Positions 250-38,615 of a stretch of 64,000 bases of DNA are shown here, piece by piece (position 1 is the stretch's first letter; each line of letters opens with the position of its first letter). The translations under genes were made by a program, and so were the position numbers. Location: contig OZ024741.1 of assembly GCA_964016885.1 (NCBI GenBank), positions 173,724,001 through 173,788,000 of the forward strand, in the 5' to 3' direction. This stretch comes from Eledone cirrhosa. Its lineage: Eukaryota. Under the pieces are notes generated by a model, which was not told the origin of the DNA, ran no database searches, and saw only the letters and a list, made by a program, of their open reading frames with translations.

Positions 250-1870
250 TTTGTTGGATTATTATTTAATGAATAATGAACACTGACAAATGTAAGAAAG
301 ATAAGTCTACCTCTGAAGTTCGGCCATATTGCCATGCAAGGTGAGAATATTTACTGCGACCCAGTTCAACACCAGGTCTGCAGTAAATGAACATAGTCAA
401 TAGTTCGTCCTCTACAAGTCACAGGTAATGCTCTACATAGCTCCCCTTCAGAAGTGTTAACTGTTATTGGAACCAATAAGGTGTTTTTACCACCCCTTTT
501 AGTGTGTTTAGTTACTTGATTCTTTAGCAACTGTTTATCATTAGGGTTCGGTGTGACTTGCCTAGTACAGCCTCAGGTTTGGTTTGGTTTGGTGGGTGAG
601 TGACTTGAATAGGGCCATCAATGTTGAGATGGGCTGGCTTCAATCCATCTATGGAAACTGTGTCTTGTAGTCCTCCTATCAAGAGCTGAAATGATTAGTT
701 CTCTGGATGAATCACTTTGCATGGCCCATCAATGGGTGACTGAGGGAGGTTTTGCCATGCATCGCAACAAATCAAAATAAACTTTGCTTTATAGATCTTT
801 GGTGTACCGTGTGTTGACATGGGGGTCAAGCGTAACTGGCCCATTTCTCAGCCGTTTAAGATACATTTTAGCATCGGAGTCTAATTTCTTGTTTGGCATG
901 AATTCATCAGGTACAGTAAATGGGGTGTTGTACACCATTTCTGCAGATAAAGTGTTAAGGTCTTTCTTTGGGGCAATGCAGATTCTTAGCCCCACCCATG
1001 ATAGTTGGTTGATTTAGTTGGGTCCATTAAGTCTAATGATGAGGGGCTCTTTCAAGTGGCAGTGAAATTGCTCCATCCAGCTGTTGGCTTGGGGGTGACA
1101 GGTTGTTGTGTGTTTCATATTGATGCCAAAAAGCTGACACGTCATTTGAGTTGAATTGAGGTCTGCTGTCTGACGAGATGCTTTCTGGGACACTGAAATG
1201 GGTGACCCAGTTTGTAACAAAGGCACAGGTGATTTCTAGTGTTTCTGTAATGCTGAACGACATGGCCTCAGGCCAATACATGAAGCAGTCCACCATTATC
1301 CACAGGTATGAGCAACCCAGCAAAGGTGGTAGAGGACCAACGAGGTCAATGTTGATTCTGTATGCTGATGTATTTTAGCTTGTTGGTAGAGGATACAGGT
1401 TTTGGTCTACTGTCCAATTTGCTTGGCCATACCATACCAGACAATTTGGCATGACATCAGGTGATGTGTGCCTCTGGTACCAGGGTAGGAGAGTCTGTGA
1501 ATCATGTCAAAAACTTTATGATTCCAGGTTAATTTAAAGATTGGTCATGGTTTCCCAAAGGAGCGTTGTTCCATTGGAGTCAAAATGTATATCATGCAAG
1601 GAAAGAGAAGTGACAGTAGGCCCAGACATCATCATCTTTTTGTTGAGCTACAGTCATAGCCTCATAGTTGAGACCTTCTTTTATCGAGGCTATGTGGCTG
1701 TCAGAATCAATAGGGGCTTGTGAGAGTGCATCAGCAATGAATGATGAACATTGATAAATGTAAGAAAGATAAGTCTACAGCTGAAGTTTGGCCATATTGC
1801 CATGCAAGCTGGGAATATTTACTGCCACCCAGTTCAATAGCAGGTTCAGAGTAAATGAACACAGTTCAAA
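250..1870 (-). mobile_element. decayed, internally deleted Gypsy LTR retrotransposon (integrase remnant between LTR-like repeats)
   Basis: Integrase-like peptides (VDCFMYWPEA, WVTHFSVPESISSD, HPQANSWMEQFHCHLK, AEMVY) with stops and frameshifts. Direct repeats of ~130 bp lie at ~268-400 and ~1737-1870. On the minus strand a PPT-like CTGAAGGGGAGCTA is followed by TGTAG at 437. Confidence 0.75.
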
Positions 1871-1904
1871 TGTAATTCCTTCCAGCCTAAAGGGACATCG
1901 CCAT

Positions 1905-2460
1905 AATAAAAAGCTGAGGAGTTAAGAAGTTTACTTTACAATTACAGGCTCCCATGACAGTAGGAATTCAAACTCTTCATATTAAATAGCTGAAGGGTTA
2001 AGAAATTCACTTTGCAATTACAAGGTCTCATGACACTAGGAATTTAGCCTCTTCACATTAAAAAACTGAGAGGTTAAGAAGTTCACTTAGAAATTATGAG
2101 GTCTCAGATTTGAACCCACTCTATGGAATCTTGGGCAAGTCTGTTGTTGTTACTCATTTTCCCACAGCTGTATGAAATGAAGCATATTGCTCAAGAACAT
2201 AATGCAGTCTGATCCAGGAATTGAACTCATGACCTTATGACCACAAGTCAAGCACCCTAACACTATGCTATGCATATTGATCCAATCTTTGTGAGTGAAT
2301 TTGGGTAGATGGATTGGCTGTAACTATATCTGAAAGGTCCAACCTTGTCATACACTGTGTCATGTTGATTCTGCCTGAGAATTATGTTAAAGGTACATAT
2401 ATCTGTGAAATACTCTGCCACTTACACTATAATACAAGATCAACTATACCTATAATTTAA
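1905..2460. repeat. cluster of degenerate tRNA-derived SINEs with a triplicated ~76-bp head
   Basis: Three tandem copies of GCTGAGG.GTTAAGAAGTTCACTT..CAATTAC at ~1908-2100, a TTGGGCAAGT core, and a reverse SINE piece with a B-box-like GGAATTGAACTC at ~2170-2270. Confidence 0.55.
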
Positions 2461-2681
2461 CCCTTTAGCATTTACATTACTCCATATTTACTATTTTTTT
2501 TCACCGTAAACTCTTTATTTCACATAATTATCTCACCTAATATCAAATCTATGAGATTTTGATATTATTTATTTTGAGAACAATACCTTAACCTCAATAT
2601 GAGCAGCCAGTTACAGCAGGTTTTGAACAAAAAGAGGTGAGAGAATTCTGGCTGAATACAACTGGTTTAAATGCTAAAGGC
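2461..2681 (+). mobile_element. TTAA-inserting (piggyBac-like) MITE
   Basis: TTAA|CCCTTTAGCATTT...AAATGCTAAAGGC|TTAA. Same family as 4064-4272, 8455-8673 and 28620-28828. Confidence 0.75.
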
Positions 2682-3199
2682 TTAAAGTCCAGCCTCAACA
2701 CACTGTATCATGGTGAATCTCCCTAAGAATCACGTTATGGGTAAATACTCACCCACTTCACAAATTGAACATTTAGCTTATGAAACAACTGAATGTTCAT
2801 CATTGAAATCAACAGAACATCGATCATTAAAAAGCTAAAGTACCATGGGAGTACCAAATAAGAAATGTCTAGCTAACTGAAGGGATTAGCAGAACAGTGA
2901 TTAACCCTTTTCATACCAAACTGTCTCTGGTTCTACAAATTCATTCTTCAACATACACACCTTGAAGTAAAAAAAGTTCACAAGTTCTTAACACTTTCTA
3001 TGACAACCATAGCTTAAAACATTTCAGTATATTGTGTGGTGTATGGAACAGCAATTAGAGCAACAGCATTTTTAGTTCATACCATATAGGTGTGGTATAA
3101 TCATTATGTATCACATACACGAGTGTGTGTCCATGAAACTTCTATACATACAAGGTCCAAACACAAAAGAACCACACTCCCACTGCCTCTGTCTCTCCT

Positions 3200-3900
3200 G
3201 CTCTCCCCATCTCTCACTATAATGAGTAAATGGAGCTCCATGCGCTGGCCTCCCTGCAGCCATGGCTGACAGAATGGAGAAGGCGCTTCCCCAGAGGATG
3301 GTGAGGGAGACATGCTATAAGAGCCATTCCAGTTTGCAAGGCTCACACCTGCAGGTAGCCAAATCTGTGCCAATGGAGGTGGTCCTACAGCCAAAGACAT
3401 TAGAAGTCTCCATAGCCTTCTTTTCAATTGATAAAAGAACACCTGGAATTGTGGTTTCAGAAGTATCACTTGCAACAGGTAGTGAAATTTTAGCTAAGAC
3501 AGGTGAACAAGAAACATTAACCATTGAAGCTTTTAACAGATGATTATCATCCAAATATAAGATTTAATAGGGTTGGATTCAATCCAAAAGAGGAGGCCCT
3601 CATTAGAGAAGTAATTAAACAAACCTAGTAATAGCTGTAGTAGTTGCATTACTAGGTGCTGGGTAATTAGCAAGGAGTTTCAATCTTTCCAGGTCAGGCT
3701 GGAGAGATTTATTTTCTAATTTGTATCCACGGTAACAAATGGATGTATGGTGAAGAAGACATTTTTCATTGATCAATGTAATGTTGATTCTCTCACTAAA
3801 CTGAAATAAACTGAGCCAAATTCCCATCATACTTCTCAATATTTTGCCAATGACAATAACATTGCTTAGATAAGTGTTAATTCATTTCATATTGTTGGTA
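3200..3900 (-). mobile_element. degenerate Gypsy pol remnant
   Basis: ORF 3615-3839 reads NITLINEKC...ICYRGYKLENKSLQPDLERLKLLANYPAPSN, matching the RT thumb / RT-RNase H connection of Gypsy pol. Confidence 0.6.
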
Positions 3901-9524: not shown

Positions 9525-9818
9525 CAGTCATGGGCAACCTGCGGCCCGCGAAGCTTTCTGAATGGCTCGCCTAAGTCACCTAAGTCAAATCTTTCTGATT
9601 TTTTTACCCTAACTTTTCAGTCGTAATTTATCTTTCTATCATTTTTACGATCAAGGAAAACGTGTACGAATTCTGAAAAACAAATCAAAACAATCTGAGT
9701 TACTGCCCTTTTTTTAATGTGGGCACAAATGTAAATTAGCGCCTGTAATCCCCCCCCCCCCCCGATGTTGAGTCATATCTCATGCGACCCGCTTCTTGAA
9801 AAAGGTTGCCCATGCCTG
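9525..9818. mobile_element. hAT (Charlie-like) MITE
   Basis: TIRs CAGTCATGGGCAACC / GGTTGCCCATGCCTG, a perfect 8-bp TSD CTCTAAAG (9517-9524, 9819-9826), and a GCGGCCCGCG subterminal motif. Confidence 0.85.
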
Positions 9819-10949
9819 CTCTAAAGTATTCTTTGCATACAGACCAAACATACATGAACCTATACAGGCTTATATAACAGACCCAAATGTGCCACCCACA
9901 TAAAAGTGTCATTCGGGATTAAGCAGATACATAATACCATAACGCTAACCAACACACCACAAAGGATGCTGAATGGAGTATTTAGTTGAATAAGTGGTCT
10001 TGTTAGTCTTTTAATTAGTAACATCTTATCTCTCTATATATTTTATGTATATATATATATATAGGCAATCAGTCACACTGACAACACCTAGCCCATAGGC
10101 CACCTCTGAATCAAATATTTTCTATATTTTCACAACTTGTATCCTCTCGGATTGTGTTTACAATTATTCCTTTATTGTGTAACTATTATGCAACATAGAC
10201 CTGATGTTGTCGCCAGGATTCTACTTAACTTGGCCACTGAAATATATATACTGTTTACAACAATAAAACTTTGAAGGAAATTCACCAGTCTGGCCTCATG
10301 TCATTTTACGGCGATATCCAATTTTAGCGGCCTAAATGCCGCTTACTTGCTGTAGTTGCTGCTTACTTCAATGTATGAGGCTATTCCAACAAATTTACAT
10401 TCCCCTTTTTTTAGCCGTTAAAAGAAATATAGATTTATTTATTGTTTTTTTTTTGCGATTTATTTGCCACTGGGGCATAGATTTCTTTATTTGCCCCTTT
10501 TTGTTTGTTTGTTTTTTTTCGATTTATTAGCCTTTTGGGGTCACACACACCCCCGTAGAAAGTGTGCGACCTTTCTGCCAGGGAGCACAGAGAGAGGGGG
10601 TGCTCCCTTCTTCTCTTACCTGTACAAGCCGATATAGAGAGATGGCCCACTTACACGGGCCATTATTGCTACTTTCACCCATCTTTCATGGAATTGGCTG
10701 GGACTGACTGCCTTTTTCTCCACCTTGATCCTTCTTTCGAAGTGGTATCGGAAGAAGAGGACCATTTGTTGGCCGGCGACATATCCCCACAGTTTCCTCG
10801 TTGCAAATGCATCTGGGACATTTCTTTTCCAAGGGGTTTCCGTCCCGGAATCCGTGTCTGTAGAGCGTTTCCCGAATGGGCAGGGCCCCTCGGTATAATA
10901 GTAAGTATTAATGGTTGTAATAAAAATGCAATCAAAATGTAATAAATAC

Positions 10950-11085
10950 CTTCACTGATTTCTTTCCTTATATTATCAACAGAAGTTGGTATGTCACCCA
11001 AAGTTCGCTTTGTATGTTCCCGAATAGCAGTGAATTTTGATAAAACTGTTTCTAATTCCTTCTCCACAGTAAGACAAATATCCAT
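10950..11085 (-). pseudogene. RMND5: captured first coding exon of RMND5 (Gid2, CTLH/GID E3 ligase RING subunit), left-arm copy
   Basis: MDICLTVEKELETVLSKFTAIREHTKRTLGDIPTSVDNIRKEISE aligns by eye, without gaps, to the recalled RMND5A N-terminus MDQCVTVERELEKVLHKF...R.L...EI. It ends at a GAAG|GTATTT donor after 136 nt. Confidence 0.75.
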
Positions 11086-11258
11086 GTGTAGTCCAAAAAG
11101 ATATAAATCTTTAAAAAAATTATAATAATTCTTTATTATTATTTTCTTTTTCTGTAAATAATTATTTTTCTATATATCTCAAACCCTGCCAAACACCACA
11201 TCTGTCCATCTGTAAATTTAAATGACTGTTCTTTCATACTTATCCTCTTCAACTACAC

Positions 11259-11394
11259 ATGGATATTTGTCTTACTGTGGAGAAGGGATTAGAAACAGTT
11301 TTATCAAAATTCACTGCTATTCGGGAACATACAAAGCGAACTTTGGGTGACATACCAACTTCTGTTGATAATATAAGGAAAGAAATCAGTGAAG
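11259..11394 (+). pseudogene. RMND5: captured first coding exon of RMND5, right-arm copy (E10G variant)
   Basis: Inverted duplicate of 10950-11085. ATG at 11259, GT donor at 11395, followed by ~55 nt of AT-rich intron-like sequence. Confidence 0.75.
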
Positions 11395-11448
11395 GTATTT
11401 ATTACATTTTGATTGCATTTTTATTACAACCATTAATACTTACTATTA

Positions 11449-11920
11449 TACCGAGGGGCCCTGCCCATTCGGGAAACGCTCTACAGACACGGATTCCGGG
11501 ACGGAAACCCCTTGGAAAAGAAATGTCCCAGATGCGTTTGCAACGAGGAAACTGTGGGGATATGTCGCCGGCCAACAAATGGTCCTCTTCTTCCGATACC
11601 ACTTCGAAAGAAGGATCAAGGTGGAGAAAAAGGCTCTCAGTCCCAGCCAATTCCATGAAAGATGGGTGAAAGTAGCAATAATGGCCCGTGTAAGTGGGCC
11701 ATCTCTCTATATCGGCTTGTACAGGTAAGAGAAGAAGGGAGCACCCCCTCTCTCTGTGCTCCCTGGCAGAAAGGTCGCACACTTTCTACGGGGGTGTGTG
11801 TGACCCCAAAAGGCTAATAAATCGAAAAAAAAACAAACAAACAAACAAAAAAGGGGCAAATAAAGAAATCTATGCCCCAGTGGCAAATAAATCGCAAAAA
11901 AAAAAAACAATAAATAAATC
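11449..11920 (+). mobile_element. Tx1/L1-clade LINE 3' end (zf-RVT region, C-terminus and A-rich tail) inside the fold-back arm; mirror copy at ~10430-10895
   Basis: Alternative frames read YRGALPIRETLYRHG...KKCPRC..NEETV and FFRYHFERRIKVEKKALSPSQFHERWVKVAIMARV, followed by AATAAA and A-runs. Confidence 0.65.
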
Positions 11921-12078
11921 TATATTTCTTTTAACAGCTAAAAAAAGGGGAATGTAAATTTGTTGGAATAGCCTCATACATTGAAGTAAGCAGCAACCAC
12001 AGCAAGTAAGCGGCATTTAGGCCGCTAAAATTGAATATCGCCCATTTTACTCAATAATCACACACACATATATCATTA

Positions 12079-12969
12079 TCTATAAAAGGCAGATTGTTGT
12101 TGTTGTTGTGTGTGTGTGTGTGTGCATGTTCCATGTTTATACATTTGCACAATTTCAAACCGATTCGACCCAAAGTCTGTAAGAATGTTGTAAATGGTCT
12201 AACTTAAGTCAACGACTATTTATTTTCTTCCAACTCACCTCCAATTACGGAAATAATCGATAAAACTAAATACATGACGCTTAACCCTCTAATACAACCT
12301 GATTTCCTCTCTCTCTACTCTACTTAAAAATCGATAAAACTACATACATGCTGCAACTTTCTCTTATATACGCTTAAACCCCCACCTTACAAACTTCCTT
12401 TAGGAACGCGGAAGAAAGAAGAGAGAAAGAAATGAAGGAGAGAGTGAGAGAGAAAAAAAAAAGAAGTGAGTGAGAGAACATTTGTTTTTGAGTGTGTTAG
12501 GAACGCGGAAGGAGGAGAAACAAAGAAAGAAACTAACAACGAAGAGAACTTATTACATTTCATACCAAACAACAATTATTCAAAAGCAACAGATAAATTT
12601 ATTCAACAACAATAAAAAAAGCGAAAAATCCGTTTATTTACTATACACAATAATATCCTCTATGAGGTCATTAAACCTGCTAGAAACAGCAGCTAACTCT
12701 CCCCCATATCACACCCCTCCCTACTGTCTTAAATTTAGAAAACACACATTAGACAACCACCCCTAATGAATAGACAGGATTTCAAACCGATTCGACCAAA
12801 AGTCGGTAAGAATGTTGTAAATAGTCTAACTTAAGTCAACGACTATTTATTTTTTTCAAACTCACCCCCAACTACATTTTGTGTATAACATATTTAAACG
12901 TTTATTGATTGAAAACAGAAACAACATAGGGATTTTTTGACCCCGAGCAGCGCCGGGCTTTAATGCTAG
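12079..12969 (+). mobile_element. non-autonomous Helitron
   Basis: 5' A|TCTATAAAAG, 3' hairpin CCCG...CGGG (12942-12957) then CTAG|T. Internal duplication ~12152-12245 / 12780-12872. Confidence 0.7.
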
Positions 12970-12979
12970 TATATATATA

Positions 12980-13392
12980 TACGAAATAACATTAAGGCAG
13001 ATGTTATGTTTACACAATTGTATTTATTACATTATACGTATTTCAATAACATGGTGGACAGTTATTAAAAGGTTACATCAGTAACTGTCACCAGTGTTAT
13101 ATCACCAGATGTTAACACAATTATGTGAAGTGGCTATGTTGGTGAGTTGATATATTGCAGGAAAAATAGTTCAACCTGGTGTAGAACCAGCAAATATATG
13201 TTCACTGGACTACTTTACCTGCAACATTTCAACATACCAACATTACCGGTTCACATAATTGTGTTAACATCTGATATCACACTTGTGCCAGTTAATGATC
13301 TAACCCTTACATAATAACTACCCAAGTCATTGAAATACGTATAATGTAATAAATACAATTATGTAAACATAACATGACAATGTTATTTCGTA
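12980..13392. repeat. degenerate ~410-bp palindrome resembling a folded-back PLE pseudo-LTR
   Basis: ACGAAATAACAT...CAATTGTATTTATTACATTATACGTATTTCAA is mirrored by TTGAAATACGTATAATGTAATAAATACAATT...ATGTTATTTCGT. It contains a hammerhead-like CTGATGT...GAAATACGTATA. Confidence 0.6.
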
Positions 13393-13679
13393 CAAAGAAA
13401 CTCTCGCGTTTAATCGCCATCACAATGCTGGAAATATACGACTGTCACGGAGTGCATTTAATTGCTTGAACCGGATTATCTTCGTAACGTAAGCATCCTA
13501 ATAATTAGCAACATATCCATGTGTGTGTGAGTGTATGCATATGTATGTGTATGTATATATGTGTATGCATATATATATATGTATATGCATGTATATATAT
13601 ATATGTGTGTGAGTGTATGCATATATATATATATGTGTGTGTGTGTATGTATATATATATATATGTGTGTGTGTGTATG

Positions 13680-13714
<35 letters not shown>

Positions 13715-14494
13715 CGAGTTCAATCGGAGGTAACCACAGTAAGATACTCAATACATTAGGTGTATACAACAAAATTTAATATAATTACAAAACAAGTCAG
13801 CTTGCCTGGTGATTTCCTTCGAATGAAACAGTTCTAGTCCTGTAGAAGCCATTTTTACATTAAATTTTGATGTGTGTGTGTGTGCACACAAACACACAGT
13901 GTATTAATTACATGGGATGAACTCATAGGTATAATTATCTAGGCTATATTCTTAGCTGTCTGGGCTGCTTTAAGTTTGGTGCCCTAAATTTAAGATTTAC
14001 CAATGTAACAACCAAGCCAGTTGCCAGGCTGTAGTGCTCGGAGTGGGGTACTTCAGAACCTTCTGGGTGGACACACTAATTTGTAGCGTAGTTAGGGGAA
14101 GTAAGGGGTGGAGAATGATATACCTAGGTGATACTTTCGTAAGGGAGTCACTGAGCAATATGTTGTATTTTCAGTGGGGGGCGGAGGAAAACTCAGGCTG
14201 CTCTAGTGTCAAATCCGCAATGATTGTAAGATGGATTTTCGGAATAAGCGTATATCACAGTAAATATTTTTAAATCTGAAGGTGCACTATTGAAAAATAG
14301 GGCGTGAAAAGTAGCACCCAATGGCCGCCCCTCTTCCCCCTTTGGTGACTTTATAGACTATACTTAACACACAAACAAAACCTATATCACTCTACGTATA
14401 AAGTTGACAGCATGCCGTTGTCTAGTGCCTGTTGATACAGATATAATAAATCTATTGTTTCTATCGACAAACTTCCTTATTATACATACACATA

Positions 14495-14570
14495 CAGGCT
14501 GTACCTCAAAAATGTATACACACTTTGATTAGAATGCTGTTGAAGTGTGTATGCATTTTTTTTCGACACC

Positions 14571-14573
<3 letters not shown>
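14495..14573. mobile_element. Tc1/mariner-type 79-bp MITE
   Basis: TA|CAGGCTGT..AAAAATGTATACACACTT ... AAGTGTGTATGCATTTTT..ACACCCTG|TA. Confidence 0.6.
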
Positions 14574-19860
<5,287 letters not shown>

Positions 19861-19864
19861 TAGA

Positions 19865-20190
19865 GGTTATATTTAATTTGTTGGGATACAACAAGCAAAA
19901 TATTTTTATAACTGATATAAAGCACTCAACAAATTATTGGAGTAAATATACAATATATTAACAAATGGAAACTATATTTATAAAACCCTATTTATTTCAT
20001 TATACATATTTCAAGGGCCACCAAGGCAAATTATAGTGCGCTTTCATCAGATAAAATATAATATAGGTTAGTTTTATAAATAAATATTGACATACCCTGA
20101 AAAAATGCAACCTTGGTGGCCCTTGAAATATGTATAATGAAATAAATATGGTTTTATAAATATAGTTTCCATTTGTTAATATATTGTATA
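19865..20190 (-). mobile_element. solo PLE pseudo-LTR (Naiad-like family) with hammerhead motif and fold-back end
   Basis: Homologous to 44581-44740 and the reverse complement of 48110-48355. Minus-strand CTGATGA...GAAATATGTATA at 19993-20058. 20112-20190 is an inverted copy of ~19948-20026. Confidence 0.7.
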
Positions 20191-20399: not shown

Positions 20400-20776
20400 G
20401 TAGATATCGTTCAACTTACCTTGTTGTGTCAGATCAATACCTACCTCAGTCTGATCACTTTTAACATACTTCCATAACAACCGAAAAGTTATCCGTCCCA
20501 TAATGACTGATTTAATCAGTATCGTCAACTGTTAATTTATAGTCATTCTATCTATAGTTAGACGACAGATTCAGGTGATTAACGAAACATAGTAACTAGA
20601 AGAAGAAGAAAATATGCAGTCGCCAGGTGCAATATTATCAAACAGGTCCAATAAAAAAAATTAGTAACAATAATAATAATAGAAAGCCGCCTTGAGAAGT
20701 TAGAAAAAATATTTTCCAGTGGTGTATATTGTCAAACGATGAGGCGATTGTAGTAACCACTAAAATAGTTTCTAGT

Positions 20777-20811
<35 letters not shown>

Positions 20812-21245
20812 TTTAATAAACATATAAGAATTCCGGCACGGAGAAAAGAAAAGTGCGTGAGAAAGAGCTCTAAAAAGAAACGACGTGGTAAGTGGTTGTC
20901 ATGTTACGCAACTATTGTCGTTTCGGTTGCTATAGCTTGCTGTCCCACGTGACCTGCAGAGCGGGAAATCAATGTCCAGAGTTGATTGAGAGATTAAAAG
21001 TTCGGGATAGACTTCAGTGAAAATGTATTTAAAGAATTCTTTTAAAATCAAACAAAAGAGTTTGTCTATATACACTAGAATTTTTAAAATTCGATTCTGT
21101 TGTTGTTTCACCCAGTTTTTGACTATTCTAAAAAATATGAGATATCAGCTCTGAAGTCTCTTGCGTGAAAGAAGAGAGCAAGTAATGTTTCAAATTATTC
21201 AAAAATTATATTTGTTCATTAGTTGTTTAATTCTAGGTAAGCCTG
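20400..21245. promoter_or_regulatory. putative (bidirectional) promoter / first-exon region
   Basis: Unique CpG-retaining sequence with CCCACGTGAC (E-box/CLEAR), GCGGGAAA (E2F) and GTTGCTATAGC (X-box-like) at ~20925-20970. Outward-facing donors: CAAG|GTAAGT (minus, ~20420) and CTAG|GTAAGC (plus, ~21236). Confidence 0.3.
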
Positions 21246-22795: not shown

Positions 22796-23909
22796 ATTTG
22801 TAGCATGATTAACTTCGAAATTGCGTGCAGTAATGAACGTGTAGCGGCCCCTTACGGCTCTGACTCAGCACGTATGGGAGTTGCGTCCCTTTACGACGGT
22901 CGTAACTCAGCACGTATAGGAGTTACGTCTCTTTGCGACGGGCGCGACTCCCATTGGCAGATTCATGTATTAAATGGAGTTGCGTTCCCCTGGGGACTAT
23001 ATATTTGAGGACAATCAAAGCATAAGCCTCTCTCGCATCCTGAACTTCGAAGGGACAAGAACACCTGAGACCTTATCAAGAGATGACTCCTGTCTCACTT
23101 CCTTCGCCCGCAAGAAGAAGAATACCGGCAGCCTAAAGAAATACTTGAACACCTCCAAGAGAAGATTTCTGTTCTTCTCTACACACTCCAGTCTGGGAGT
23201 TGTGACCAACTGAACATCTACATGTGGTAACAATTATTTATATTAATTTATTTGACTTTTGTGAAATAAAACCATGTCACAACACTCACCTGCATTTATT
23301 GTCATTCTTGATAATATATATATATACACTGATACTAATCACCTAAATTGGTGACCTGACGTTTAAAAAAAAAAAAAATGGGAAATGGTACCATGTGTAT
23401 ATAAGAAAAAAGAGAGAGAAAAAAACATTTAATACAGAACAACACACTTGATTCTGATATGGCTGTATTGACCGATCTAAACATATTTCTCTGTAACACT
23501 TAACATCAAACTCTTCATAAGTGCAGAAGGAACACCCAAAGTTATTTACACACAAACAAACAGCAATTGTATGAATGTTTTTTCTTTTTTTTTTCTCCTT
23601 TTCTTTTCTTCTTTTCTCTGGCTAAAAATTTTGAGGATGACAAGATGACGGCTTTCTTCTCCATCAATAGTGTTTTTGGCGCGAAATAGTCCGCCATGTT
23701 GGTTTTAGTTTTAAGTTCCCTGCCTATACCTTATTAATGACATCGCTCGGTTAGTCGCTCCTTTGCATATTGTCTCGGATGCATTCTTTTTCCTGTCCAG
23801 TTGTTTGACAGAGAAAAATAAGCGATTTTGTTTTCCTTTTCTGTTGTGTTGGAGACATTTTTCCAACGGAGACGATTTTTTTGGGGGGCAAATTACCTAC
23901 GGTATACCA

Positions 23910-24716
23910 ATGGCATCTCATTCTGTTCTACCTACGTACACGGACGACGTAAGGCTATGGTTCACCTAACTCGAAGCATTTTTCGAGGCGAACAGAATTG
24001 ACGAAGCACAACAAGGTCCTCTGGTCCTTAGTGCAATTCCGCCGGCACTTATCCCAGCGATTAAGGACCTGGTGTTAGAGACACCCACCGACGAGACGTA
24101 CAAGTCTCTGAAGGCTGAAATACTCAGCCGGACTGTACAGTCTGCAGAAAAAAGATTTAGGGCTCTGGTCCATCTGGAGCATATAGGTGATGGCACCCCA
24201 TCGAACCTCCTAAGGCGAATGAAGGACCTAACGGAGGGGTCGGTAGCGGAAACTGCCATGCTGAAGCAGTTGTTCTTCTCGCGCCTACCGACCAACGTAC
24301 AGGAAATTTTGGCCCCCATTAGGGATACTTGCACGGTGGATCAGCTTGCCGCCTCTGCGAACAAAGTTTTCGAAGTTACGGGTGCTGGAGGCAGCGAAGC
24401 CCTTGCCGCTGTTTCCCAACCAACTCAAGCCACACCTGGCCATGCCATCTGCGCGGCAGCTCCTGTAGACAGCTCAGCTATTATGGCGATGCAGAAGGCC
24501 ATTCAGGAACTCACCCTGGAGCTCCAGAAGATGAAGGCCTGGTGTGGTGCCCGTTCGCGCCCCCGCAGCCGCGGGAGATCGCAATCTTTTAGACGTCGTT
24601 CCAAGTCACCAGGTTCATCTTTATGCTGGTACCATGAGAGATTTCCCGAGAGCGCGAACCACTGCGTGCAACCTTGCTCGTTTCATAAGGCGGGGAACGC
24701 CAAAGAGGTCCGCTGA
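23910..24716 (+). pseudogene. gag: Gypsy gag (premature stop at 23967-23969)
   Basis: MASHSVLPTY..DVRLWFT*LEAFF...YKSLKAEIL...GDGTPSNLLRRM...LFFSRLP...CWYHERF..SANHCVQPCSF. Confidence 0.85.
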
Positions 24717-24749
24717 CGGAGGCAGTTGACCTCAACATAAAGCCACCAA

Positions 24750-27700
24750 ACTGCCATTTCTTCATTAAGGACCTTAGGTCGGGAAGAGGTTTCCTCGTGG
24801 ATACAGGAGCCTCCTGTAGTATTTTGCCGGTCCATTGCCTGAAAGATACCCCCGTAGAGTCATCCGTTACTCTGCATGCCGTTAACCACTCGTCTATCAA
24901 GATGTACGAGCAAATCTCGCTTCCTCTCAAATTCCTAAATCTTCGTAGGGATTTTAAGTAGATTTTTACGGTTGCCGATTTTCCATATCCTACCTTAGGA
25001 GTGGATTTCCTCCACAACTTCTCTTTGACTGTGGACGTCCGTGGCCAACGCCTGGTGGATGACATCACTGGTTTTTCAATTTATTGGCCGGAAAGCCAAT
25101 GCTCGAACTGTCAGCCCCATATTCTTCATCGCTGCCGCTGGAGACGCTTACCATTCGTTGTTAGGTTCTTTCCCGGAGCTCACCGATGGAAATTTTCGAG
25201 TCTCTAAGCCAACACACTCAACTGAACATTTCATTTCCACCACCGGTGCTCCAGTATTTTCGCGTCCACGCCGCTTACCGGCGGACAAATTAAAGGCAGC
25301 ACGGTCCGAGTTCGACCATATGCTGCAGCTGGGCATTATTCGCCCATCTACGAGTCCTTGGGCTTCACCGTTACACATGGTGCCCAAGACTTCCGGCGAC
25401 TGGAGACCCACTGGGGATTATAGAAGGTTAAATGCTATGACCGTCCCAGATAGGTATCCCATTTACATCTCCAGGATTTCTTATCTTCATTGCAGGAGTG
25501 TAAGATTTTCTCAAAACTAGATTTAGTGCGAGCCTACCACCAAATTCCGGTCAGGAAGGAGGATATTCCAAAAACGGCGATTACAACTCCTTTCGGATCC
25601 TTCGAATTTTTGACCATGCCTTTCGGACTCAGGAACGCCGCTAGCACTTTTCAGCGGTTCATAGACGAAATCACTCGTGGTCTGGACTTCGTTTATGCTT
25701 ACATAGACGATATTCTCGTCGCTAGTTCCTCTCCGGAAGAGCATATGCGCCACATGCATCTCTTATTTCGGCGACTTCAGGATTACCGCGTTCGTGTGAA
25801 TCCCGCAAAGTGTGTTTTCGGTTCCACTTCGCTAAATTTTTTAGGCCACCTCATCGACGCCGAAGGTATTAGGCCGCTCCCTCAGCGAATTCAAGCCATA
25901 CAGGATTTACCTCCGCCTACTACACTTCACCAGTCGCGTCACTTCTTAGGCCTAATCAATTTCTATAGGCGTTTCGTTCCTCATTGTGCTAATTTGTTAT
26001 CTTCCCTTACTGACATTTTGAAAAATCGTAACAAGAATGAGGATATTTCCTTGACGCAAGGACAGCTTCAAGACTTCCAGACTACCAAGACAGCACTCGC
26101 TAGTTCATCTTTGCTAGCCCACCCGGTACCAGAGACCAAGCTTTCGCTTTGTGTTGATGCATCTGATACCGCTGTGGGAGCAGTTTTACAGCAGTTCAAC
26201 ACTGGAAACCAACAACCTTTTGCATTTTTCTCGAGGAAGCTGAAACCAGCAGGAACGCGTTACAGCACGTTTGGGCGGGAATTATTAGCCATATATCTGT
26301 CGGTGAAACATTTCTTTCATATTCTTGAGGGGAGAAATTTTACTGTTTTAACCGACCACAAACCTCTGACCTTCGCTTTGAGGGCTAAAGCCGACAGATA
26401 TTCGCCCAGAGAGACAAGGCACCTGGATTACGTTTCGCAATTTACAATGATATCCAGCACATTACTGGCTCGCATAACATAGCTGCAGACGCATTGTCAC
26501 GTTTGCCAATCAGCTCCATCTCGTCATCCCAGGAGATCGACTTAGGTCGTTTAGCTGCAGACTAACCTGCACTCCAATCGTTGGATACTCTTTCTGCCGA
26601 ATTTGCGACTTGCATCTTCAAATATCTGCCCTTGTCTACCACGGACAGGCAAATTCTATGTGATGAATCTACGGATTCACCACGACCACTTGTTCCTGAG
26701 ACTCACCGTCGAATTGTGTTCCTTGCTTTGCACAACATTTCTCACCCAGGAATTTCTGCCACAGTAAAGCTTATAACGGCTAGATTTTTCTGGCCCAATA
26801 TGAGGCGATAAATTACTGTCTGGTGCCGTTCCTGCACACAGTGTCAGAGATCTAAAATCCACAGACACATCCAGACTCCGCTTGGTACTTTCAGTACACC
26901 TGATGCTCGGTTTCAGCACATACACATTGATATCGTTGGACCTTGGCCATTCAGCAGTGGATATTCGTACCTCTTGACCTGTATCGATCATTTTTAGCGA
27001 TGGCCTGAAGCCATCCCCTTACAAGATATAATTGCTGAGACTGTAGCGCGTGTCCCGGTATTAGGGTAGATTACCCGCTTTGGGGTACCAACTACAGTCA
27101 CCACAGACCGTGGTAGACAATTTGAGTCTCATCTTTTCTCTGAGCTCACAAAGATCATTGGCGCTCAACGGATTCGGACCACAGCCTATCATCCTGCTTC
27201 AAACGGAATGGTGGAACGATTCCACCGCCAATTAAAGGCCGCTCTTCGCGCCTATCCAGACTCTCAACGTTGGAGCGAGTACCTTCCTATTGTGTTGTTA
27301 GGAATTCGGTCATCAATAAAGGAGGACATTGGGTTCTCCCCGGCCGAATTACTGTATGGTGCTCTTCTAGCGTTGCCTGGGCAAATGCTTGCCCCGTTGA
27401 TCTTGCTTTCCAGGACCCTGTTTCCTACGTATCTCGTTTGCGCTCCTATTTTCAGGACTTACCGCCCATGAATACTAGGAAACAGAATGTTAAAGCTGCA
27501 GTCCCGAGGGATATTGCCTCGTGGACACATGTATTCGTCAGAAACGATGCGGTTTACTCCACCCCTCACACAACCGTACCCTGGACCCTACCGTGTGTTA
27601 GCACGTACTGACAAACATTTCACTGTAGACATTAAGGGGTCGAGAGAGACAATTTCGGTGGATAGACTAAAAAGGGCATACAATGACGCTCATACACCCG

Positions 27701-27840
27701 AGCCACAAATACCCCAATCTTTCTCTCTTGTGCATACACCTGCTCCTTCTGGCCCACCTTCACCTACATACAAGACCACGATCCGTTCCGGTCGAAGAGT
27801 CCACTGGCCCCAAAAAACTCTGCCAAACTGTTTTCATGTG
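24750..27840 (+). pseudogene. pol: Gypsy pol (PR-RT-RH-IN) with stops and frameshifts
   Basis: [94 protein letters not shown] and PYPGPY motifs. Confidence 0.9.
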
Positions 27841-28619
27841 AACTGGCCACTGGACCCTTATTTTTTTTTCTCTTTATTGTATTACCATGTACCTTTCGTT
27901 ACCATTTCATGCCTGTACCTTCTCGTTACCATTTCATACCTGTGCTGGGAGCCCATGCTTGTGGGTTCGCTACAGTTACCTTCGGGCTTTTCGCCTAGCG
28001 TCTGGAGGAGGGTACTGTAGCGGCCCCTCACGGCTCTGACTCAGCACATATGGGAGTTGCGTCCCTTTACGGCGGTCGTAACTCAGCACGTATAGGAGTT
28101 ACGTCTCTTTGCGACGGGCGCGACTCCCATTCGCAGATTCATGTATTAAATGGAGTTGCGTCCCCCTGTGGACTATATATTTGAGGACAATCAAAGCATA
28201 AGCCTCTCTCGCATCCTGAACTTCGAAGGGACAAGAACATCTGACACCTTGTCAAGAGATGACTCCTATCTTACTTCCTTCGCCCGCAAGAAGAAGAATA
28301 CCGGCAGCCTAAAGAAATACTTGAACACCTCCAAGAGAAGGTTTCTGTTCTTCTCTACACACTCCAGTCTGGGAGTTGTGATCAACTGAACATCTACATG
28401 TGGTAACAATTATTTATATTAATTTATTTGACTTCTGTGAAGTAAAACCATGTCACAACACTCACCTGCATTTATTGTCATTCTATATAATATAATATAT
28501 ATTCACTGATACTAATCTCCTAAAAACGGAAAGGAATACATGTATAGTTGTAGTGTGCCATGTGTGCTAATGTGGTATAATTATTTATATGTGGCAATGT
28601 GTGTAAATGTAGTATTTAA

Positions 28620-38415: not shown

Positions 38416-38615
38416 NNNNNNNNNNNNNNNNNNNNNNNNNNNNNNNNNNNNNNNNNNNNNNNNNNNNNNNNNNNNNNNNNNNNNNNNNNNNNNNNNNNNN
38501 NNNNNNNNNNNNNNNNNNNNNNNNNNNNNNNNNNNNNNNNNNNNNNNNNNNNNNNNNNNNNNNNNNNNNNNNNNNNNNNNNNNNNNNNNNNNNNNNNNNN
38601 NNNNNNNNNNNNNNN
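38416..38615. other. assembly gap (200 N)
   Basis: Run of n. Confidence 1.

Follow-up and report, generated by a model that had tools for sequence, protein, structure and literature searches.

A probable foldback DNA transposon family that carries the first coding exon of RMND5 in both arms

A stretch of 64,000 nucleotides from the cephalopod Eledone cirrhosa (contig OZ024741.1, positions 173,724,001 to 173,788,000 of the forward strand; hereafter the window, whose numbering is used for all coordinates) holds a long hairpin at 10310..12042 that includes sequence of the gene RMND5. An earlier note on this DNA had proposed that the hairpin could regulate RMND5 through RNA interference or ADAR. 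The locus therefore raises the question of whether we are looking at a regulator of a host gene or at mobile DNA that has carried a piece of one along. Our analysis favors the second answer: the element probably belongs to a non-autonomous cut-and-paste transposon family with host cargo (a Pack-TIR, for its terminal inverted repeats, TIRs) and has taken a foldback form, so that selfish spread would account for it and no selected control of RMND5 is needed. The element probably lacks a function of its own, and regulation of RMND5 by it is possible but unsupported.

The ends of the roughly 780-bp hairpin lie where the earlier note had placed them. A raw local alignment paired 10310-11103 with 12042-11241 (783 of 794 positions identical, 3 indels), and the innermost 11 nt of this alignment, which hold 4 of the 11 mismatches, are non-homologous. 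Because these letters are unrelated between the two sides, we set the true arms at 10310-11092 and 11252-12042, identical at 776 of 783 positions and separated by 7 substitutions and 3 indels (8 nt, all within T-rich tracts). Local alignment found no other match to the element within the window. Folded as RNA, 10560-11790 (1231 nt) is predicted to form a single continuous stem of -1071 kcal/mol, a value given without shuffled controls at such length; read-through RNA would accordingly yield almost perfect double-stranded RNA (dsRNA), as had been proposed. At 10708-10709 the arms disagree at two neighboring bases, with the right-arm letter at 10708 in all four sequencing runs compared below; each arm may have acquired its own change, or the site may be an assembly blemish. 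The hairpin comprises three parts:

10310..11092, minus strand: left arm (783 bp), probably a derived inverted copy of the right arm (alignment; its inner junction differs from that of the host 5’ untranslated region in contigs, joint 11092 to 11240)
11093..11251, plus strand: loop (159 nt) of captured RMND5 upstream and 5’ untranslated region (UTR) sequence, with a TATA-like hexamer at 11102 (host-type contig matches 11124-11251)
11252..12042, plus strand: right arm (791 bp), contiguous with the loop as in the host gene and probably the original half (alignment and contigs)

Each arm contains a copy of the same coding exon, followed by a short intron-like sequence in the right arm:

11259..11394, plus strand: RMND5 first coding exon, right copy, 45 codons plus 1 nt with a phase-1 donor, which begins a 136-residue chimeric open reading frame (ORF) at 11259-11669 (phmmer and profile searches)
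10950..11085, minus strand: RMND5 first coding exon, left copy, ATG at 11085 and donor after 10950 (tblastn; 39 of 45 residues, 87%, identical to the protein P0002)
11395..11448, plus strand: intron-like sequence, the first 54 nt past the donor (sequence; a host-type DNA contig from run X4 agrees for 8 nt)

On sequence similarity, the first 45 codons are identified as RMND5. With the right-copy protein as query, phmmer returned 30 matches at E values up to 0.001 among 1.84 billion representatives, the best being the unnamed protein P0002 (84% identical, E 1.2e-15). In the homologues inspected, similarity ends after one common codon, the pattern that a conserved phase-1 intron would leave. From 8000 scored candidates, a profile built on 14 sequences picked out 25 proteins, those with names being mostly RMND5 or RMD5, and it matched human RMND5A in the PDB (8pjn_b, residues 1-45, E 1.3e-6). 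The 45-residue exon alone gave no match in a word-indexed search (4 candidates), and its best PDB match reached only E 0.38. Searching the 64 kb by tblastn with the 25 proteins revealed no further RMND5 exon beyond the two copies, the next match having an E value of 0.19. The start codons at 11259 (plus) and 11085 (minus), the identical donors after 11394 (plus) and 10950 (minus), and the 136-residue chimeric ORF open in both arms all agree with the earlier description. Its identification of the gene as RMND5 also stands. Only 136 of about 780 bp in each arm are RMND5 coding sequence.

Beyond the intron-like sequence, the cargo resembles the 3’ end of a long interspersed nuclear element (LINE):

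11449..11815, plus strand: LINE-like 3’ end, 5’-truncated and internally deleted, with a CxxC/zinc-finger-like piece, a C-terminal piece in another frame, a stop at 11728 and a 3’ UTR (translations and contigs)
10529..10895, minus strand: LINE-like 3’ end, left copy (mirror of 11449-11815)

Diverged relatives in the contigs align from 10529 or 10533 and leave at 10895. Deep relatives, judged by eye, extend the LINE frame upstream at its 5’ end among the loose ends listed for three of the four runs, and at 10889 in the fourth; one run, X6, also has a 12-nt deletion variant at 10839. We take the CxxC and C-terminal motifs of 11449-11815 to be typical of L1/Tx1 ORF2 ends. The Tx1 identity assigned in the earlier note rests on such motif reading and on contigs; database searches gave no significant match for the LINE pieces, and atlas scores of 0.75-0.78 serve as leads only, so that we write “LINE-like” throughout.

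The composition of the cargo bears on how it was assembled. In a variant compatible with a Pack-TIR origin, a LINE reverse transcriptase would have switched from LINE RNA to RMND5 pre-mRNA, and the chimeric retrocopy would have landed in a TIR element. The host RNA 5’ part, the LINE 3’ end and the A-tract do lie in fitting order on one strand, and precedents exist both in template-switch chimeras and in Xenopus Tx1, which targets the non-autonomous Tx1D (PMC4494074). We regard this route as possible but doubtful: no duplication around the chimera was found (its left side may have been lost), the TATA-like hexamer of the loop would sit upstream of a transcript, the Tx1 label is unconfirmed, and a LINE inserted in a host intron and captured together with it as DNA gives the same order.

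The outer ends carry the marks of a transposon insertion, delimited as follows:

10302..10309, plus strand: target-site duplication, left copy, 8 bp (exact match to 12043-12050)
10310..10528, no strand: left outer terminal inverted repeat proper, starting with GG, with degenerate A-rich subterminal repeats and an approximate inner limit (sequence; three X5 contigs)
11816..12042, no strand: right outer terminal inverted repeat proper, ending with CC (sequence); its first A-tract may be LINE poly(A) or a subterminal repeat
12043..12050, plus strand: target-site duplication, right copy, 8 bp (exact match to 10302-10309)

Of the lengths from 4 to 13 bp, only 8 bp gives an exact target duplication, with a chance expectation of about 3e-5 for the local composition. 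It was absent from the earlier note, as was the apparent multi-copy nature of the element described below. Between its GG...CC ends the element does not itself encode a transposase: three long ORFs in the right arm gave 0 Pfam families, and the anatomy leaves no room for one. A hAT membership was rejected, as the ends lack the usual hAT start. TIRs and a target duplication, host-gene cargo with its parent elsewhere and the missing transposase are the hallmarks of a Pack-TIR. As to superfamily, Mutator-like elements (MULEs) have TIRs of more than 100 bp and duplications of 8-10 bp, and include gene-carrying Pack-MULEs (PMC5499845); Merlin elements have TIRs of 24-462 bp, a terminal GG and duplications of 8-9 bp (PMC8101967). 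With TIRs above 100 bp and 8 bp duplicated, the element agrees with the former; with its terminal GG, 8-bp duplication and outer repeat of about 220 bp it agrees with the latter, whose range is exceeded by the whole arm. We therefore describe a non-autonomous DNA transposon that appears Mutator- or Merlin-like, and lean slightly towards Mutator, a group with documented cases of cargo capture and of foldback ends.

The element was also compared with public sequencing runs. Thirteen are listed, 8 of them with part of the stretch, from 5 studies. Four of the 13 were compared, all as contigs: X1 and X5 from organism A (one study), X4 from organism B and X6 from organism C. The comparison spanned 9830-11240, that is one arm, the loop and the left flank only. 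Among the remaining runs, X7 and X8 have shares of 0.06 and 0.05, X9 and X10 of 0.00, and X11-X13 are raw reads. Contigs drop rare variants, and contig depth is not a copy number.

In X5, three contigs with different long flanks leave the element at exactly 10310 and one at 10305. Seven X1 and X6 contigs are listed for the older repeat on the left flank, and five of them stop at 10308-10309. In X1 the arm contigs reach depths of 712 and 799 and the joint from exon to loop 610. The flank there has a depth of 3.5 (2 differences in 363 nt) and five single-locus contigs lie at 6.6-10.4, giving element to single-locus ratios of 70-110. The corresponding depths in X6 are 250 for the element and 11-26 in six single-locus contigs, a ratio of about 15. 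X4 has no depth over 10310-10405, a gap that was given no weight as evidence. Over the outer repeat the bin depths sum to 10,000-20,000, a total inflated by overlapping short contigs and not taken as a copy number. Because the target duplication, the GG...CC ends, the different flanks at one end and the depths far above those of single-locus contigs coincide, we conclude that the element probably belongs to a multi-copy family of roughly tens of copies. The comparison of carriers with non-carriers proposed in the earlier note is unsuited to a family with many copies per genome.

The same contigs bear on how the foldback form arose. An X5 contig of host type (record 23, depth 45) covers 11124-11232 with 8 differences and 16 gap letters, and the corresponding element-type loop contig (record 24, depth 23) has none. 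Because the host-type contig has the same right inner junction, we take the loop to be 5’ UTR of RMND5, with the right arm following it in the natural order. In X6, a 247-nt contig (record 32) runs unbroken from the exon across the right inner junction into the loop, and the depth ratio of exon to loop is 1.08; as exon and loop are equally deep, most elements in organism C probably have a single copy of the cargo. At 11172 organism C retains the letter of the host gene, and the window has another. X1 differs in that its arm contig breaks at 11092 and its exon to loop ratio is 1.3-1.55, as would be seen if folded and unfolded copies were mixed. Over the 125 bp of 10310-10434 the terminal repeat of X6 departs from the window by 17 differences and 6 gap letters, and the X6 loop is 99% identical to that of the window; such diverged ends beside so similar a loop suggest that the cargo may have moved between related ends.

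Chimeric long reads are known in general to yield long near-perfect inverted repeats, so we considered whether the hairpin could be an assembly foldback artefact or, alternatively, a true RMND5 first exon with a local inverted duplication. In run X4, from an independent study, a single 219-nt contig (record 16) spans the closed loop and its two inner junctions without any difference, which excludes an assembly artefact. The arms moreover differ by 7 sites and 3 indels, a target duplication stands at both ends, X4 and X5 have a separate, different host-type exon, and no other RMND5 exon lies in the 64 kb. Either explanation is barely credible.

The simplest history is probably one of capture, spread of an unfolded form and a later inverted duplication of its right half. 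A TIR element would first have gained the RMND5 5’ UTR, first coding exon and 54 nt of intron beside a truncated LINE 3’ end, all in one orientation. As the organism C contigs suggest, this unfolded form would then have multiplied. In one derivative, repair synthesis would have copied about 790 bp of the right half in reverse, replacing the left half, so that the cargo came to lie inside both arms and only 159 nt of 5’ UTR remained as the loop. The target duplication and the multiple flanks indicate that the family was moved by a transposase supplied in trans. Copies would be transcribed by read-through or from the captured upstream sequence, with hairpin RNA an incidental ADAR substrate in cis and the captured donor spliced now and then to whatever lies downstream.

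Organism B raises a separate question about the spread of the family. X4 matches exon and loop of the window element with 0 differences at depth 2.9-3.4, and its own RMND5 exon contig (depth 4.5) differs from the element at 13 of 146 sites, compared with 6 of 129 for the host gene of organism A. A near-identical element beside a more distant host gene might reflect transfer or introgression, an explanation we put forward tentatively and think less probable than its opposite; contamination with 1-2% of organism A DNA would give the same picture.

Signs of transcription come from run X5, which comprises 88 million letters and includes a host-type contig of 1435 nt (record 21) that matches the exon with 6 differences over 129 sites. 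As this contig leaves exactly at the donor, X5 would be an RNA run and the contig spliced RMND5 mRNA. None of the listed runs with element sequence is recorded as RNA, which we count neither for nor against transcription. Element-type sequence is present beside it, with depths of 31.5 vs 99.5 for host-type sequence over the exon and 23 vs 45 over the loop and 5’ UTR. DNA carry-over could give such depths; we favor transcription of particular copies because X5 includes single-locus flank junctions, and because its differences at 10716 and 10740 are absent from the letters listed for X1. The X5 bins leave about 110-250 depth x nt for 11093-11123, less than expected from the element loop depth. 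Most element RNA might therefore begin within the loop and form no hairpin; a hole in contigs proves nothing, and this value was not used.

The earlier note had named long hairpins as substrates of Dicer and source of endogenous small interfering RNAs (endo-siRNAs). Mollusca are reported, in the available text of two studies of which the second included Octopus bimaculoides, to lack DICER2, an siRNA-type Argonaute and an endo-siRNA signature (PMC11114477, PMC12479628). This argues against such action, and RNA interference of RMND5 by the element appears unlikely in a molluscan host. The family could instead regulate RMND5, and the LINE, in trans via small RNAs made by DICER1 and the microRNA (miRNA) Argonaute, or via element-derived PIWI-interacting RNAs (piRNAs). 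Processing of dsRNA by the miRNA pathway is left possible (PMC11114477), and somatic piRNAs exist in molluscs (PMC12479628); the predicted stem is nearly perfect, the element-type contigs over exon and 5’ UTR are roughly a third to a half as deep as those of host type, and the exon is still about 95% identical to that of the host, with some 21-nt windows matching. Against this stand the missing dedicated pathway, the deepest X5 exon contig, which is of host type and spliced, so that the host gene is expressed beside element RNA, and the hairpin itself, where we saw no sign of selection. We consider trans-regulation improbable. A fully paired hairpin would in any case hide its antisense strand, and unfolded copies read backwards should make the better antisense in trans.

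For ADAR, the near-perfect stem and the reported editing of squid RNA, widespread in repeats and directed at repeats outside the nervous system (PMC9068888), make editing of read-through hairpins in cis likely in principle. The contigs, however, gave no editing signal that stood out. Element-type contigs of X5 differ from the window at 0 of 129, 0 of 109, 3 of 133 and 3 of 250 sites, counts for which matched DNA is absent and from which rare variants are dropped; edit-like changes make up 26 of 39 transitions in X5 vs 26 of 54 in X1, 38 of 78 in X6 and 10 of 14 in X4 (p 0.09, 0.08 and 1.0).

The proposal that the ATG-plus-donor exon splices onward finds a hint in X5. There, the exon contig of element type (record 22, 0 differences) breaks exactly at 10950, where two unlike long loose ends leave it (agreement 0.53); as one of them is the host-type 1435-nt contig, the other would most simply be a foreign sequence joined to the element donor by splicing. 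From bin arithmetic, the depth of this splice is about 2-11 vs 24-30 unspliced, and its partner sequence is unreadable. These data suggest that the captured donor is spliced to foreign sequence in a small share of transcripts. A T-rich acceptor-like AG also arises at the fold junction on the minus strand (11086-11125), 23 nt before the left-arm ATG, so that the left exon could serve as a cassette exon; on the plus strand the sole AG within the loop lies at 11099.

These features would suit an exon-shuffling vehicle that delivers upstream sequence, an ATG and a working phase-1 donor in either direction to many loci, some of the chimeras being kept by selection, and at least 30% of animal Pack-TIRs are transcribed as chimeras (PMC8277862). 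The low splice depth with its unread partner tells against it, as do the two 136-residue ORFs, neither of which has a match among about 15 billion proteins (a weak point), and the state of the exon itself. Of the 6 differences between the host-type contig and the element, the 4 displayed are all non-synonymous; the host letters there give P0002 residues, and the element changes include a proline. The captured exon thus appears to be drifting or decaying without protein constraint, its parent being represented by the host-type contigs distinct from the element in X4 and X5. A main role as an exon-shuffling vehicle strikes us as quite improbable. There is a similarly slim chance that all these activities combine in a mobile hairpin gene, its exon mirrored into both TIRs at tens of transcribed loci, which would dampen or edit RMND5, a subunit of the CTLH/GID ubiquitin ligase, via ADAR, piRNA or DICER1 where no dedicated siRNA pathway exists, seed ATG-plus-donor exons and possibly cross species.

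Several observations weigh against the selfish Pack-TIR reading that we prefer. A single target duplication was read, the X5 flank contigs are without demonstrated cargo, and copies of the element are known from contigs; X1 may be the source sample of the window, and X1 and X5 come from one study. No transposase partner was found, a search of metagenome contigs with the terminal pattern of the element giving 0 matches. None of the contigs showed the left end of the unfolded form, and organism C may harbor a minor hairpin form, since contigs drop rare variants. The 136-residue ORF is open in both arms, which drift allows at 0.9% divergence and which selection may also explain. Finally, the share of T>C changes in X5 is higher than in X1 and X6 (p 0.057 and 0.045, uncorrected; p 1.0 for X4) and could be editing.

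The sequence surrounding the element is rich in repeats. The insertion lies in an older dispersed repeat (10070-10309) whose relatives, about 80-90% alike, stop at the target duplication. To its left, 9525-9818 is a 294-bp miniature inverted-repeat transposable element (MITE). It has short terminal repeats, is flanked by an exact target duplication of 8 bp, and its ends look hAT/Buster-like. To its right, 0.9 kb away, lies a second, older palindrome of about 410 bp (12980-13392, 77% self-complementary), probably a decayed MITE, and 12152-12248 and 12779-12875 form a 97-bp direct repeat (93% identical, about 630 bp apart). A CpG-rich region at 20400-21000, with strong consensus donors pointing outward at 20420 (minus) and 20887 (plus), is possibly a bidirectional promoter; the element would be intronic if the minus-strand unit extends left. 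A Pfam scan of 109 flanking ORFs, out of 165 passing the filter, gave only 3 weak matches below the cut-off, and no downstream exon for this unit or host gene around the element emerged from the scan. Farther away are a broken Gypsy-type long terminal repeat element (22900-28500; DUF7041, RVT_1 and RNase H), an older remnant with an integrase match (800-3900; rve, E 1.1e-5, below the cut-off), an assembly gap of 200 N (38416-38615) and largely AT/AC microsatellite sequence (14.5-19.7 kb and 31-63 kb). An Rfam scan gave 2 matches, both far below the gathering score and neither inside the element.

If the history proposed here is right, the family matters in several respects. In animals, multi-copy gene-carrying DNA transposons were found five times in 100 genomes and fly populations, with few copies each, and they are common in plants (PMC8277862); the present family appears far more numerous than the known animal cases. 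Both stages of its history are suggested to survive, the unfolded form in one organism and the foldback form in others, which would make it a natural test of how inverted host-gene duplicates arise and spread, and of the fate of self-matching long dsRNA in an animal with very active ADAR and no dedicated siRNA pathway. In practical terms, tens of near-identical copies of the RMND5 exon would distort read mapping, variant calls and RNA-editing calls there.

We found no description of this element in the literature searched, mostly without subscription journals, and it may sit unnamed in a repeat library. A paper on the repeats of Octopus vulgaris, whose supplement lists 18 Merlin and 55 Mutator families, mentions RMND5 neither in the main text nor in the supplement, its repeat library being outside the search (PMC13282606). 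The main text of Tan et al. (2021; PMC8277862) contains no occurrence of “hairpin”, “octopus” or “mollus-”.

Several known systems resemble the element in part. Merlin shares the terminal GG, the 8-bp duplication and an outer repeat of about 220 bp, inside its range of 24-462 bp; the element differs in lacking a DDE_Tnp_IS1595 transposase and in whole arms of about 790 bp that exceed that range (PMC8101967). Xenopus Tx1L in Tx1D and the template-switch chimeras of U6-L1 type offer parallels for a LINE 3’ end that lies within a non-autonomous DNA transposon and is preceded by a 5’ part resembling host RNA, but Tx1D is of piggyBac type (PMC4494074). Hairpin RNA loci producing endo-siRNAs in Drosophila are also long inverted repeats containing target-gene sequence; unlike the present family they are loci rather than mobile elements, and they need the dedicated siRNA pathway that molluscs appear to lack (PMC10317233). 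Plant Pack-MULEs, and MULEs with extra TIRs, have long TIRs, 8-10 bp duplications, captured fragments and rearranged-end derivatives that outnumber their ancestor; their extra repeats, however, are duplicated TIR sequence, and the available text of these sources does not describe cargo mirrored into both arms (PMC3310237, PMC5499845). Closest are the animal cases of Tan et al., with four multicopy examples among 370 Pack-TIRs, plus Ssk-FB4 of Drosophila melanogaster, in which FB4, with TIRs of about 700 bp and duplications of 9-10 bp, is argued to be a MULE (PMC8277862). Like them, the element is non-autonomous, has a long target duplication, carries the 5’ end of a host gene, was re-mobilised and belongs to a group often transcribed as chimeras; unlike them, with the gene once between the repeats and 3-4 copies, it holds the exon inside both arms, in roughly tens of copies, with a decaying exon and a LINE-like end in its cargo (PMC8277862). 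The element thus appears to be a recently mobile foldback variant of multi-copy Pack-TIRs, and the foldback is its new aspect.

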